A stretch of DNA of 64,000 bases from Nitrospirota bacterium (GCA_963732675.1 CAVTAJ010000005.1:427317-491316); one strand, 5' to 3'. Shown: positions 39,510 to 45,019, numbered from the stretch's first letter. A program made the numbers and translations. Notes: generated by a model from the letters alone, not told the origin.

Positions 39510-39677
39510 ATGAAATGCAAGTCCTGCGGCAAGGAAGTCGAGCTTCGGATCGGCTGACGCGCCATCACCTTTCGCTGCACGGCGTGCGGCAAGGATTTTT
39601 CGATCAAGGAGTATTCGGACCAGATCGATGAAGAGATGTGGGAGAAGATCTCCCGCCGCCCCTGCAACCGGGCGTGA
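39510..39677 (+). CDS. Small dual-CXXC zinc-ribbon-like protein with an in-frame TGA (candidate selenoprotein, 55 codons)
   Basis: MKCKSCGKEVELRIG-[TGA 39555-39557]-RAITFRCTACGKDFSIKEYSDQIDEEMWEKISRRPCNRA. GAGG RBS. Hairpin GCTGCAC-ggc-GTGCGGC at 39574-39590. I recall an NCBI family named 'dual CXXC motif small (seleno)protein' but cannot verify membership. Confidence 0.45.
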
Positions 39678-39769
39678 TCTGCCTGTAACTGTTATTTACC
39701 CGCCTCTTGTTTCAATGCAATTCTTTGCCTCTTACCTCAGCAATTTACAACTTCATAAAATAATTAACG

Positions 39770-39798
39770 TTGACATTTCCATAATAATATAATAATAT
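39770..39798 (+). promoter_or_regulatory. Candidate sigma70 promoter for the arsR-led operon
   Basis: TTGACA, 17 nt, TAATAT, embedded in an AT-rich ATAATAATATAATAATAT tract. Confidence 0.35.
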
Positions 39799-39854
39799 TT
39801 GCATGAATTCTTAAGACATCATTACGCGCTCACTTTCTCCGGAAATGAGGTCCC

Positions 39855-40196
39855 ATGATCCCGGTCAATAAACGGATAGATCTATTAAAGGTAATCTCCC
39901 ACCCTATCCGGTTAAAGATCCTCGAAGAACTCACTCTTGGCGTGAAGTGTGTGAGCGACTTCGAGGAGTCCCTTGACATCAGCCAGCCGAACGTGTCGCA
40001 GCATCTGTCGCTTCTCCGGACGCACAGCGTCATTGATTTTTTTGTTGACGGCAGGCTCAAATGCTACTTCCTCATAGAACCCCTCATTCCCGATCTGCTT
40101 GAACTCCTGAAAAAAGAATATGAAGAGGATATTGCCGCCCCGGCCTGCTGTCCGGTGACGAAAAAAGGAACCTACCCAGGTGAAAGGAGACGATAA
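39855..40196 (+). CDS. ArsR/SmtB-family regulator with a BigR/SqrR-like Cys arrangement
   Basis: LKVISHPIRLKILEELTLGVKCVSDFEESLDISQPNVSQHLSLLR is an ArsR HTH. One Cys sits in helix alpha2 (VKC) and Cys-Cys lies near the C-terminus (PACCP). Confidence 0.8.
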   Translation: MIPVNKRIDLLKVISHPIRLKILEELTLGVKCVSDFEESLDISQPNVSQHLSLLRTHSVIDFFVDGRLKCYFLIEPLIPDLLELLKKEYEEDIAAPACCPVTKKGTYPGERRR

Positions 40197-40201
40197 TCTG
40201 C

Positions 40202-40461
40202 ATGAAGAAGCACACAATTACTCTTTACATGAACGACCCCATGGGCAAGCGCTGAATGTCCAACATGGAGGCCGCCCGTGGGGCGGAGAAGGAATTCGGC
40301 GCGGAAATTGTTGTGATCAAAAGACCTCGAAGCGAATACAGCCAGATGAAAGACCCGATGCCATGTCCCTCGGTTGTTGTGAATGGCCGGTTGTCACAAG
40401 GAACGACACGGTTACACAGCGGGCGCTCAAGGCAGCGATCATGAGTGACTGTGAAACGTAG
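40202..40461 (+). CDS. Thioredoxin-fold (glutaredoxin-like, MTH895/TM0996-type) protein with an in-frame TGA; one frameshift near 40390
   Basis: MKKHTITLYMNDPMGKR-[TGA 40253-40255]-MSNMEAARGAEKEFGAEIVVIK...PCPSVVVNGR/VVTRNDTVTQRALKAAI. The TGA aligns with the second Cys of the family's CxxC. Hairpin CCGCCC-gtg-GGGCGG at 40272-40286. AAAGGAGA RBS. Confidence 0.55.
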
Positions 40462-42858: not shown

Positions 42859-43037
42859 AAAAAAGAGATACTGAAGCTGCACGCTGTTTTTTCGAGGGCT
42901 CTTCCATTCCCACGAGGTTCGAGATCCTCAGTTTCGTAAGATCAGGTGCACTGTCCGTCAACGAGATTACCGCGAATCTCGGTATACCAACGCTAAGTTA
43001 TCAAGACGCAAAGAAGCACAGCATGTTCGCGACCTAA
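42855..43037 (+). CDS. Short ArsR-like HTH fragment (60 aa), appended to sqr in the ORF track only because of the repeat
   Basis: MKKRDTEAARCFFEGSSIPTRFEILSFVRSGALSVNEITANLGIPTLS... resembles the ArsR alpha1-alpha4 region but lacks the remainder. ATGA overlap with the native sqr stop. Confidence 0.35.
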   Translation: MKKRDTEAARCFFEGSSIPTRFEILSFVRSGALSVNEITANLGIPTLSYQDAKKHSMFAT

Positions 43038-43155
43038 ACATATCATGAAACTTTTATGAGTATCTTCGTGTTTTGGTGTGGCATGTGGCCATCTATTTAG
43101 CAATTTATATCCTCTCCGTTTATTGCGAACAGTCCACCCTTGACACAAGAATTTA

Positions 43156-43183
43156 TTGACATTTACTAAATAAATATTACAAT
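43156..43183 (+). promoter_or_regulatory. Candidate sigma70 promoter for selD; it would give a nearly leaderless transcript
   Basis: TTGACA, 16 nt, TACAAT, ending 9 nt before ATG 43193. No Shine-Dalgarno is visible. Confidence 0.35.
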
Positions 43184-43192
43184 TCAAATATT

Positions 43193-44239
43193 ATGGAAAT
43201 CAAACTCACACAACTTTCCAGCTGCGCCGGTTGAGCGGCAAAGTTCAGCCCTGCTGAACTGTCCCAGGTCCTGGGACAATTGCCGAAGATCATGGACCCG
43301 AACGTGCTCGTGGGCTATTCGAATGCGGACGATGCGGGTGTTTACCGCGTATCGGACGACCTTGCGATGGTCTTTACCGCTGATTTTTTCACGCCCATCG
43401 TCGATGATCCGTACTGGTTCGGTGCGATCGCGGCAGCCAACTCGCTGTCGGACGTCTACGCGATGGGCGGGAAGCCGCTCGTCTCCCTGAACATCGCCGC
43501 GCTTCCCGCAGGCCCGGAGTTCGCCGAGATCAACAAACGGATCATGCAGGGCGGCATCGACAAGATGACCGAGGCCGGGGTCGCCATCATCGGCGGTCAT
43601 ACCATCAAGGACAAGGAACCGAAATTCGGATATGCCGTGCTGGGCTCCATCCATCCCGATAAAATACTCGACAACGCAAAAGCGAGGCCGGGTGATGCCC
43701 TGATCCTGACCAAGAGGATCGGCACCGGCGTGATCTCAACAGGGATCAAGACGGGAAATGCAGCGCAGCGACCGCGGAAGCGTTCACCAAATCCATGGCC
43801 ATGCTGAATAAACGGGCGGGCGAGATCATGCTCGAAGTGGGCGTCAGTACGGCCACGGACATCACGGGCTTCGGCCTGATCGGCCATCTGAACGAGGTGC
43901 TCACCGCGAGCAAACGCTCTGCCAGACTCCACGCGCGCCGCGTCCCTGTTTTCGAGGAGGCGGTAACCTTGGCAGAGAAGGGCATGGTACCGGGCGGCAC
44001 GAAGGGCAATCTGCAGAACTATGATCCTTTTGTGGAGTGGAGCAGCGATGTTTCCATGACCGACCGGCTCCTGATGAACGACGCACAAACGTCGGGCGGT
44101 CTATCTGATGTTTGTGCCTCAGGTCAGAAAGAACAAGCTCATTGCGGCCCTGCAGAAAGAGCATATCCTGGCGGCCCATATCGGCGATGTGCTCGAAGAA
44201 GATGAAAAAGGACCAAAGCGGATCTTCGTGGTGAAATAA
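43193..44239 (+). CDS. selD: Selenide, water dikinase (selenophosphate synthetase), Sec-containing form; two frameshifts (near 43780 and 44105)
   Basis: MEIKLTQLSSCAG-[TGA 43232-43234]-AAKFSPAELSQVLGQLPKIMDPNVLVGYSNADDAGVY... The TGA sits at the Cys/Sec position of the N-terminal glycine-rich loop (E. coli HGAGCGCK). The rest lies in ORFs 43280..43807 and 43795..44205, with the tail LLMFVPQVRKNKLIAALQKEHILAAHIGDVLEEDEKGPKRIFVVK*. Confidence 0.85.
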
Positions 44240-45019
44240 ATGGACGCCACCTTTATGGCCTTTCTGGCACTGGTCGGCGCATCCGTCGGTTTTCTCTCGG
44301 GCCTGCTCGGGATAGGCGGAGGCATCGTCATGTTTCCGCTCTTGCTCTACGTGCCGCCGCTTCTCGGGTTCAGCGGAATAGATGTCAAAAGCATCACCGG
44401 CCTCACGATGATCCAGGGCTTTTTCTCCGCGCTCACGGCAATGTTCTACTACAACAAGAACGCGCTGGTGAACAAGTCACTGGTTCTTACACTCGGCTTT
44501 TCCCTGTTTCTCTCATCGCTGATCGGTGCGCTGGTGTCGAAGAAGATACCGGACGGACCTTTGCTTATGGTCTTCGCGACCCTGGCATTGATCGCGGCGG
44601 CGATGATGCTCATCCCCCGAAGTTATCATCAGGACGAACTGACCGAGGAACACGTCGTTTTCCATAAAACCACCGCGATCGTGATCGGCATTGTCCTCGG
44701 CTTTTCCATCGGCCTGGTAGGGCAGGGCGGCGCGTTCATACTGATACCTACCATGTTGTATGTGCTGAAGATCCCGCTGCGGGTGGCCCTCGGCAGCACG
44801 CTCGCGATCGGGCTTTTCTCGTCCTCGGCAGGATTGGTCGGGAAGATCGCTACCAGCCAGGTGCCGTTTCTCATGGCGCTGCCTCTGCTTGCCGGCGCGA
44901 TCCCCGCCGCGCGGTTTGGCAGTATTGTCGGCAAGAAAACGAACACTCAGTTTCTCCGGTGGCTGCTCGCGGCCATTATCTTTGCCACTGCGGTGAAAGT
45001 CTGGAGCGCTATTATTTGA
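44240..45019 (+). CDS. TauE/SafE-family (DUF81) anion permease, translationally adjacent to selD
   Basis: Intact 259 aa with 7-8 TM segments and the duplicated G-rich motifs of the family (LLGIGGGIVMFPLL; GLVGQGGAFILIPTML). The start follows the selD stop directly. Confidence 0.8.
   Translation: MDATFMAFLALVGASVGFLSGLLGIGGGIVMFPLLLYVPPLLGFSGIDVKSITGLTMIQGFFSALTAMFYYNKNALVNKSLVLTLGFSLFLSSLIGALVSKKIPDGPLLMVFATLALIAAAMMLIPRSYHQDELTEEHVVFHKTTAIVIGIVLGFSIGLVGQGGAFILIPTMLYVLKIPLRVALGSTLAIGLFSSSAGLVGKIATSQVPFLMALPLLAGAIPAARFGSIVGKKTNTQFLRWLLAAIIFATAVKVWSAII

Follow-up and report, generated by a model that had tools for sequence, protein, structure and literature searches.

The gene cluster described here occupies positions 39510–45019 of a 64,000-nucleotide (nt) stretch of DNA from an uncultured Nitrospirota bacterium (GCA_963732675.1 CAVTAJ010000005.1:427317-491316), which we refer to as the window. 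It comprises ten genes, all on the + strand, and is flanked on the same strand by aspS (37617–39389) on one side and by a fatty-acid oxidation cluster (from 45402) on the other. The genes encode, in order, a dual-CXXC mini protein, an ArsR-family repressor, a TsoC-like protein, DsrE-, DsrF- and DsrH-like subunits, a sulfide:quinone oxidoreductase (SQR), a remnant of a second ArsR (arsR2), the selenophosphate synthetase SelD and a TauE/SafE permease whose ATG directly abuts the selD stop codon (Table 1). An initial annotation had proposed this order, which was borne out, with the identities coming from profile searches against NCBIfam and Pfam. Four of the genes, those for the mini protein, the TsoC-like protein, the DsrE-like protein and SelD, contain an in-frame TGA.

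Comparative evidence indicates that these four codons are real selenocysteine (Sec) codons. In tblastn searches of other assemblies the TGA is kept in 7 of 7 orthologues of the mini gene, 27 of 27 of the TsoC-like gene, 61 of 62 of dsrE and 17 of 17 of selD, the lone DsrE exception being Cys. The protein sequence is conserved on both sides of the codon, in line with the first observation that each frame continues past it. An independent assembly of a strain with 97% DNA identity (locus L001) keeps the TGA in three of the four genes, namely the mini gene, dsrE and selD. In the two families in which homologues were compared at the UGA position, Cys is found there: DsrE, as CxxC, and SelD (E. coli Cys17). 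Downstream of all four codons lie hairpins resembling selenocysteine insertion sequences (SECIS), starting 18–19 nt from the U of UGA, close to the 8–17 nt originally given. The dsrE hairpin shows compensatory double changes at 5 of 7 pairs in the orthologue alignment; in the tsoC hairpin double changes affect a single pair, in 8 sequences. In single-sequence folding, the selD structure beats its shuffles (z = -4.0), while the other three fold no better than shuffled controls. An Rfam search of region 39000–45500 at a permissive threshold returned only a chance microRNA match (mir-26, E = 0.88) on the aspS terminator. No gene for tRNA-Sec was found in the window, whose sole tRNA is tRNA-Pro, or in 1.9 Mb of fetched loci, and ten of the larger open reading frames (ORFs), scanned with Pfam, included no selA or selB; selC is reported to lie within selB in Nitrospirae (PMC13188914). 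All four selenoprotein families, namely TsoC, the dual-CXXC protein, Sec-containing SelD and the UxxC DsrE-like protein, have been catalogued before (PMC13188914), as the initial annotation had noted for the last two.

Two of the Sec residues fall on known Cys positions, as the initial annotation had placed them. The SelD loop G-U-A-A-K aligns with E. coli G-C-G-C-K, with U14 at Cys17 and K17 at Lys20. The DsrE-like protein, which matched no NCBIfam model, has the active site U73-T-G-C. A family profile, used in place of a single-sequence search of the PDB that was swamped by spurious PPR-repeat matches, matches YchN, Allochromatium vinosum DsrE (7e-15) and E. coli TusD (5e-11). In the profile alignment the invariant C/U73 column corresponds to the sulfur-binding Cys78 of DsrE (2hy5_A) and TusD (2d1p_A). 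Two subtypes, U-TGC and U-GGC, were distinguished, both of them Sec proteins. Homologues with CxxC at the Sec position (P0126, P0128, P0149 and P0150) were found by an exhaustive search with the N-terminal 72 amino acids (aa). A word-indexed search with U replaced by C yielded no Cys homologues, because its best 120 matches were all 72-aa products ending at the UGA and named ‘DsrE family protein’. The same truncation probably explains why a survey of metagenome-assembled genomes (MAGs) found that most Thermodesulfovibrionia ‘possess dsrFH, but no dsrE’ (PMC11033732): dsrE encodes a selenoprotein, and its gene call ends at the UGA after 72 aa.

The TsoC-like protein had initially been described as a thioredoxin-fold protein with UGA at the second position of a CxxC motif. 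The CxxC part of that description did not hold. The motif is NDPMGKRU, and the family pattern N-[DE]-P-x-G-x-x-U recurs in nearly all 27 sequences listed; Gly occupies the first Cys position, and a CxxU redox motif was rejected. The protein is best described as a borderline TsoC: once its frameshift is repaired, the window copy falls just under the cut-off of model NF045708 (Table 1), and the orthologue in locus L026 scores 45.0 bits, the value of the cut-off itself. The mini protein has the layout CxxC...G-U-R...CxxC, with Sec between the two CxxC pairs, and its gene stands upstream of arsR in about 10 loci.

By homology, the SQR is a genuine type I enzyme. It matches the SQRs of Aquifex aeolicus (3hyv; E = 3e-101, residues 3–391) and Acidithiobacillus ferrooxidans (E = 3e-96); the equivalents of Cys156 and Cys347 align, a third Cys stands no more than 2 residues from the Cys124 position, and the C-terminal region is alike. 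It stays below the cut-offs of the type III selenoprotein SQR model NF049943 (104 versus 525 bits) and of TIGR03169 (70 versus 310 bits). Inside sqr we found an imperfect 85-nt tandem duplication (42660–42742 and 42745–42827, copies 86% identical) that breaks the reading frame; an apparent 484-aa SQR–ArsR fusion ORF (41583–43037) is false. Loci L001 and L002 encode a 396-aa SQR and lack the duplication. Position 42748, at first suspected to be a junction joining sqr to selD, thus belongs to a duplication within sqr, and since L001 and L002 keep the sqr–selD adjacency without it, the duplication is not the source of that adjacency.

About 150 loci were compared overall. A genome scan with the SQR protein gave 80 loci, almost all of them from MAGs labelled as of Nitrospirota/Thermodesulfovibrionales type; the reciprocal search with SelD gave 62, and a single-protein scan with TauE only 6 close loci. 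The order arsR-(tsoC-tauE2)-dsrE-dsrF-dsrH-sqr is found in about 60 of 81 SQR loci; dsrF follows dsrE in about 60 loci, and dsrH always lies between dsrF and sqr. The selD gene lies within 8 kb of the SQR gene in 18 of the 81 loci (9 of the 42 whose 8-kb flanks are complete), and does so in at least five arrangements. With dsrEFH directly upstream of sqr in about 60 loci and selD near it in 18, it is SQR and DsrEFH that form the tight pair. The proposed link of SQR/DsrEFH with selD-tauE is real, recurring in several arrangements, but optional, and the units are separable.

The selD gene itself has tauE behind it in 21 of 22 cases among the SQR- and TauE-derived loci, and almost universally in the Nitrospirota part of the selD set (at least 59% identity). 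In the selD-centred set, at least 15 loci have an ArsR gene of the window type immediately before selD. Among the arrangements are arsR-tsoC-tauE2-selD-tauE, arsR-tsoC-tauE2-sqr-selD-tauE and arsR-(tsoC)-dsrEFH-sqr-selD-tauE; L075 and L077 carry single operons of the form arsR-selD-tauE-dsrEFH-sqr, and L090 and L091 have arsR-tsoC-tauE2-dsrEFH-x-DrsE_2-methyltransferase-selD-tauE, without SQR. Distant selD genes in the selD set (42–49% identity, MAGs mostly of other phyla) have none of these neighbours. SQR orthologues with 67–87% identity also occur without the other cluster genes, some of them in MAGs labelled Elusimicrobia and Desulfurivibrionaceae. Judged by gene order, the cluster belongs to a modular operon family of Thermodesulfovibrionia-like Nitrospirota, predicted to be under an ArsR-type repressor and with the core arsR-selD(U)-tauE. 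The tsoC(U)-tauE2, dsrE(U)FH and type I SQR modules are placed either between arsR and selD or in a second unit headed by an arsR paralogue. The window shows arsR-tsoC-dsrEFH-sqr, the arsR2 remnant, and then selD-tauE with its own promoter. The initial annotation had also considered that the neighbourhood might prove non-conserved and its two units be joined only at 42748; they are indeed separable, but their joining did not arise by duplication.

Closely related sequences carry the cluster in different states. Locus L088, which has 88–94% DNA identity to the window and the same aspS and fadB flanks, contains only mini-arsR-selD-tauE, and window positions 40196–43192 are absent from it. The bin MFD01872.bin.2.231 holds three versions of one site, one with a tsoC-remnant-dsrEFH-sqr cassette and two with mini-arsR-selD-tauE only (Table 1). 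This suggests either a presence/absence polymorphism of a cassette of about 3 kb in the population or mixed strains in the bin.

Other relatives carry further modules. A full-length arsR2 is present in L026 and L049, where it heads a DrsE_2-MMPL-LolA_like-DUF1302 module (L026:9188-11500); the arsR fragment of the window is a stump of arsR2, which implies that the window lineage has lost that module. Many relatives have, downstream of sqr, a module of arsR2, DrsE_2, an MMPL transporter, LolA_like, DUF1302, arsR3 and a CopD-like gene; in L049 it is located at 9152–15652, between sqr and selD. Several CxxCH motifs in one frame between tauE2 and dsrE in L026 (5700–6900) suggest an inserted multihaem cytochrome c gene. 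ArsM-like selenoproteins are encoded at L007:14142-14870 and L024:12774-13520, with an in-frame TGA at a conserved Cys (W-x-x-U-[IV]-[GC]-G). Their best NCBIfam matches are arsenite methyltransferase selenoprotein models, all below the cut-offs, and their genes lie directly behind a window-type ArsR, followed in L007 by selD-tauE. A Cys-type counterpart of the cluster is found in L082 at 6610–11523 (GCA_016208315.1, JACQYF010000069.1). It encodes an ArsR–rhodanese fusion, a methyltransferase, DsrE(CxxC), DsrF, DsrH, a methyltransferase and an SQR-like flavoprotein, the last of which, at 236 bits, falls short of the cut-off for the type III SQR selenoprotein model. Genes for an ArsP permease and a molybdopterin oxidoreductase lie in its vicinity.

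The repressor had been credited with a BigR/SqrR-like Cys layout, which the alignments do not support. The invariant residues are instead C32 and a C-terminal P-A-C98-C99-P motif: C32 and C99 are kept in 66 of 66 orthologues, and the CC pair in all 66 C-terminal tails. C70 also seems to be conserved in the alignment tails. An equivalent of BigR Cys42 is missing, and a score of 46 bits against model NF040642 (cut-off 155) led us to reject a BigR/SqrR orthologue. We predict as the operator a 10-4-10 palindrome with the consensus ATGCAAATAT-N4-ATATTTGCAT, represented in the window by ATAATAATATAATAATATTTGCAT (39781–39804). This palindrome is conserved upstream of 57 arsR orthologues; the 64-kb window contains it once, against a chance expectation of 0. 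All fetched loci together yield 102 matches, 72 of them immediately before arsR, and shuffled sequence gives 0. Further matches precede dsrE in L075 and L077 and the MMPL module. Operator-like palindromes also occur 400–900 nt downstream of sqr in many loci (e.g., L026:9961, L043:9965 and L056:9668); the one inspected, in L026, stands in front of the MMPL gene. Lying behind a promoter that the operator overlaps, arsR is predicted to be autoregulated.

The selD promoter-like site of the window ends 10 nt before the ATG, and a Shine-Dalgarno sequence is lacking, which may mean a leaderless transcript. In the sister strain (L088), arsR is followed instead by 44 nt with a ribosome-binding site and then by selD. 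In 58 loci this type of arsR precedes tsoC or dsrE. Almost always a selenoprotein gene comes first or second behind it: tsoC in 22 loci, dsrE in 36 and selD in 4 of the SQR-centred set, selD in at least 12 loci of the selD-centred set, and ArsM-like(U) genes in L007 and L024. The one exception seen is L058, whose arsR has genes on the opposite strand behind it. Common control of both units is evident from gene order in these relatives, and for the window we infer it from them.

The window copy carries several lesions within 5.5 kb, namely four 1-nt indels and the 85-nt duplication. A -1 frameshift affects tsoC at about 40393 (three-frame translation and comparison with L026). An extra base at about 40866 replaces the consensus C-terminus of DsrE (...KSKPIFLNFGI*, whose stop would be at 40898–40900); this lesion is common to L001. 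Two indels, -1 at about 43750 and +1 at about 44104, interrupt the selD frame relative to both L001 and L088. In L001, selD and sqr are intact, tsoC is reduced to a remnant and the arsR2 remnant is further broken. Comparison of the window with L001 gives 46 gap openings in 8.3 kb. A thiolase gene (window 47961–49134) is split into overlapping ORFs of 214 and 260 aa in the window and is a single 390-aa gene in L001, while aspS is split in L001 and whole in the window, which indicates random indel errors in both assemblies. The indels in the cluster are likely sequencing errors, decay of this copy being a less likely cause.

Table 1. Features of the cluster and of compared sites. Positions refer to the window unless a locus is named; in-frame TGA codons and profile scores are given with the genes.
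Feature	Position	Strand	Evidence or remarks
Probable aspS terminator, just upstream of the mini gene	39403..39499	+	Sequence inspection: long GC-rich inverted repeat, then T run
Dual-CXXC small selenoprotein, 55 aa	39510..39677	+	NF041197, 65.9 bits vs cut-off 40; TGA 39555-39557
SECIS-like hairpin, mini gene	39574-39590	+	GCUGCAC-GGC-GUGCGGC
Predicted arsR promoter, overlapped by operator palindrome	39770..39804	+	Promoter scan: TTGACA-17-TAATAT
ArsR/SmtB-family repressor, 113 aa	39855..40196	+	NF033788, 62 bits vs 55; PF01022
TsoC-like small selenoprotein	40202..40461	+	NF045708, 43.9 bits vs cut-off 45; sole family match; TGA 40253-40255
SECIS-like hairpin, tsoC-like gene	40272-40286	+	Covariation across orthologues
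DsrE-like selenoprotein	40555..40923	+	PF02635, 47 bits; TGA 40771-40773
SECIS-like hairpin, dsrE	40789-40806	+	Covariation across orthologues
DsrF/TusC-like subunit, 117 aa, without active-site Cys	40911..41264	+	PF02635, 48 bits
DsrH/TusB-like subunit, 93 aa, without any Cys	41276..41557	+	PF04077, 38 bits
Type I-like SQR, 396 aa after removal of one repeat copy	41583..42858	+	Homology to solved SQRs
arsR2 remnant, about the first 45 codons	42855..43037	+	Weak HTH_5 and NF033788 matches
selD promoter-like site	43156..43183	+	TTGACA-16-TACAAT; 11/12 positions; best in region
Selenophosphate synthetase SelD	43193..44239	+	TIGR00476, 358 bits vs 125; TGA 43232-43234
SECIS-like structure, selD	43236-43285	+	Fold z = -4.0
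TauE/SafE permease, 259 aa	44240..45019	+	PF01925, 139 bits vs 32.6, residues 9-253
Sites of the mini-arsR-selD-tauE/cassette comparison	L088 (= L095) 3239-5777; L126; L094

Elsewhere (4000–20000; 51300–54828), the window contains a complex I (nuo) gene cluster. By synteny with Pfam-annotated genes of L001 it also contains two toxin–antitoxin pairs (PhdYeFM/YafQ and MazE/PIN) and a DsrK/HdrD-like iron–sulfur CCG-domain protein.

The cluster resembles several known systems and differs from each of them. The cst operon of Staphylococcus aureus consists of cstR, tauE, cstA, cstB and sqr. As in this operon and in the BigR and SqrR regulons, a small thiol repressor, a TauE permease, a DsrE-fold sulfurtransferase and SQR are clustered in the window. 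Unlike those systems, the window cluster has no persulfide dioxygenase or rhodanese gene, its carrier is a three-subunit DsrEFH-like set with Sec as the active residue, and its repressor, an ArsR, has C32 and a CC tail in place of the BigR/SqrR Cys pair and is not a CsoR-type CstR. The operon is, moreover, joined to or co-regulated with selD. With DsrEFH of Allochromatium vinosum and TusBCD of E. coli it shares the three small genes in the order E-F-H and the position of U73 at Cys78. It departs from them in its F- and H-like proteins, which score below the NCBIfam cut-offs, and in its Sec, kept in nearly the whole DsrE family; its genes stand beside sqr and arsR and not in a dsr or tus context, with no dsrAB/dsrC or tusA/tusE in the locus.

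Two systems that involve selenium provide further comparisons. The Tso ‘three selenoprotein operon’ encodes TsoA, TsoB and TsoC together with TsoR, TsoX and TsoY (PMC13188914). The loci studied here share with it an N-[ED]-P-x-G-x-x-U protein whose score equals the TsoC cut-off or falls slightly short of it, a regulator of the ArsR family and several genes for selenoproteins, all within a single operon. However, no protein of the window locus matches TsoA or TsoB, the regulator reaches only 33 bits against a TsoR cut-off of 115, and TsoC here has a TauE paralogue or DsrE(U)FH as its partner. YedE/YedF and the flavoprotein–SelD fusions (TIGR03169) likewise place a transporter and a DsrE-fold redox protein beside selD and link it to Pyr_redox_2 (PMC5322559, PMC2432076). 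In the window the transporter is TauE and not YedE, the DsrE-fold protein is a separate Sec subunit of a three-gene set and not a TusA–DsrE fusion, and the SQR is of type I by homology and unfused to SelD. The initial annotation knew of no described pathway linking such a flavoprotein and carrier to selenophosphate synthesis. This holds only in part: flavoprotein–SelD fusions and SelD-associated YedF are published (PMC2432076, PMC5322559), but we found no description of the sqr-dsrEFH-selD unit, of the arsR-selD-tauE unit or of its fusion with dsrEFH-sqr in the literature searched, which did not include Haft & Tolstoy 2025. What appears to be new here is the combination as a unit, each selenoprotein family having already been catalogued.

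Given these features, we hypothesize that the cluster encodes a sulfane-sulfur relay that depends on Sec, receives its sulfur from SQR and is regulated together with selenophosphate synthesis. We hold this view with confidence evenly balanced by doubt, and we favor it because of the tight pairing of DsrE(U)FH with SQR, the ArsR–rhodanese fusion in the Cys-type cluster of L082, rhodanese being a sulfurtransferase, and a parts list like that of sulfide-stress operons. The placement of U73 at the sulfur-carrying Cys78, with CxxC there in homologues, speaks in the same direction. Published MAG work likewise takes Sqr in Nitrospirota to stand for sulfide oxidation (PMC11033732). In such a relay, membrane-bound SQR would oxidize sulfide with menaquinone, building zero-valent (sulfane) sulfur on its catalytic Cys. 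The DsrE(U)FH-like complex would take up this sulfur onto Sec73 as a selenylsulfide or persulfide and then hand it on, for example to TusA or DsrC, or to a low-molecular-weight thiol. The TsoC-like protein, with its single Sec and a thioredoxin-like sequence pattern, could resolve or reduce sulfur adducts, and the TauE permease could carry the sulfur or selenium oxyanion that results through the membrane. The ArsR probably senses thiol-reactive chalcogen or metalloid species via C32 and C98–C99. We further propose that, because the key carriers need Sec, selD and its partner permease come under this ArsR family too, so that the supply of Sec would be switched on together with the relay.

A number of observations weigh against this relay. 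The DsrF- and DsrH-like proteins score below the cut-offs of their specific models (TIGR03010, 31 versus 94 bits; TIGR03011, 40 versus 49 bits), and the latter has no Cys at all, canonical DsrH having a conserved Cys20. No gene for TusA, DsrC, rhodanese or persulfide dioxygenase was found in the locus. The repressor lacks the persulfide-sensor Cys pair of BigR/SqrR, with Glu in the column of BigR Cys42, and a search of the window selD promoter for the ArsR operator gave no match. With three genes frameshifted and one carrying a duplication, this copy may not be functional. The core arsR-selD-tauE contains no sulfur gene, and a role in sulfur metabolism thus leaves the near-constant tie between TauE and selD unexplained. 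The SQR-less operons of L090 and L091 tie dsrE(U)FH directly to selD, and the ArsM-like selenoproteins and the MMPL exporter module in the neighbourhood point to a broader chalcogen/metalloid theme.

Part of this evidence would fit selenium chemistry. TauE could move selenite or selenide, SQR could oxidize selenide to enzyme-bound Se(0), and DsrE(U)FH and TsoC could carry perselenide or selenotrisulfide to SelD, with the ArsR sensing Se via its vicinal Cys. Under this reading, the ArsR (C32, C98–C99) would be a selenium- or chalcogen-sensing repressor of selD and of a TauE selenium permease, and DsrE(U)FH, TsoC and SQR would form a perselenide/selenide relay that feeds or buffers SelD. The conserved core arsR-selD-tauE, within which the other modules are inserted, the constancy of tauE behind selD, the SQR-less link of dsrE(U)FH to selD in L090 and L091, and the lack of such neighbours around the distant selD genes are all consistent with it. 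There is precedent as well: YedE and YedF, the latter with a DsrE-like domain, lie beside selD, and a Pyr_redox flavoprotein fused to SelD has been proposed to generate the SelD substrate (PMC5322559, PMC2432076). Mammalian SQOR oxidizes hydrogen selenide (bioRxiv 10.1101/2023.04.13.535674). Set against this, selD is missing within 8 kb from 33 of the 42 SQR-DsrEFH loci whose flanks are complete, the SQR is of the ordinary type I and in a sulfidic habitat would presumably meet far more sulfide than selenide, its orthologues are also found without the other genes, and our literature search found no link of TauE to bacterial selenium transport. We consider selenium trafficking possible but unlikely, both as a whole and in the roles it assigns to the repressor and the relay. 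Somewhat less probable still is that the genes share regulation without a common chemistry, the ArsR switching on SelD and unrelated selenoprotein modules (TsoC, DsrE, ArsM-like and mini) when Se is available; adjacency would then say nothing about substrate flow. The position of a selenoprotein gene first or second after arsR in nearly every case and the free shuffling of modules between genomes would suit such a selenium-status regulon. It sits poorly with the operator-like palindromes before the MMPL/LolA_like/DUF1302 module, in which no selenoprotein gene was identified, and with the tight dsrEFH–sqr pairing, which indicates a shared chemistry of its own; we also know of no ArsR-family selenium sensor.

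Two further explanations remain. One of the As(III) site types, that of Acidithiobacillus ferrooxidans ArsR, combines a vicinal C-terminal Cys pair with a third Cys, and the Cys arrangement of the window repressor resembles As(III) sites of this kind. An arsenic or metalloid detoxification island would have its As(III) site at C32/C98/C99, sulfur from SQR and DsrEFH would thiolate arsenic, the ArsM-like proteins would methylate it and TauE or MMPL would export it. The ArsM-like selenoproteins in the same units of L007 and L024, and L082 with its ArsM-like methyltransferases and nearby ArsP permease gene, lend this some color. Profile searches, however, found no arsB/acr3, arsC or arsM at the window locus, most loci have no ars gene at all, and the control of selD-tauE would go unexplained, making this the least probable of the readings. 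Hardly more probable is that the window cluster is undergoing decay or in part represents an assembly chimera, the compact arrangement then having no present function. The density of lesions, the dsrE frameshift common to L001, the tsoC remnant there and the missing cassette in the sister strain would agree with decay. Yet the frameshifts in housekeeping genes and the many gap openings have the look of sequencing error, selD and sqr are intact in L001, and both L001 and L002 have the same gene order without the duplication.

If the sulfane-sulfur relay is correct, it would add a selenocysteine-dependent version of an SQR-linked sulfur relay to those known. If selenium trafficking were true instead, the cluster would represent a complete regulated pathway from selenium uptake to activation, distinct from YedE/YedF. 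The probable miscalling of dsrE would account for a recurrent gap in MAG annotation and bears on the use of dsrEFH as a marker of sulfur oxidation. The regulation of Sec synthesis in bacteria and the delivery of selenium to SelD are poorly understood, and a repressor with a defined predicted operator before selD, together with a TauE permease that nearly always follows selD, are concrete candidates for selenium regulation and transport. The modular arrangements over the loci compared, finally, offer a natural parts set for in vitro work.

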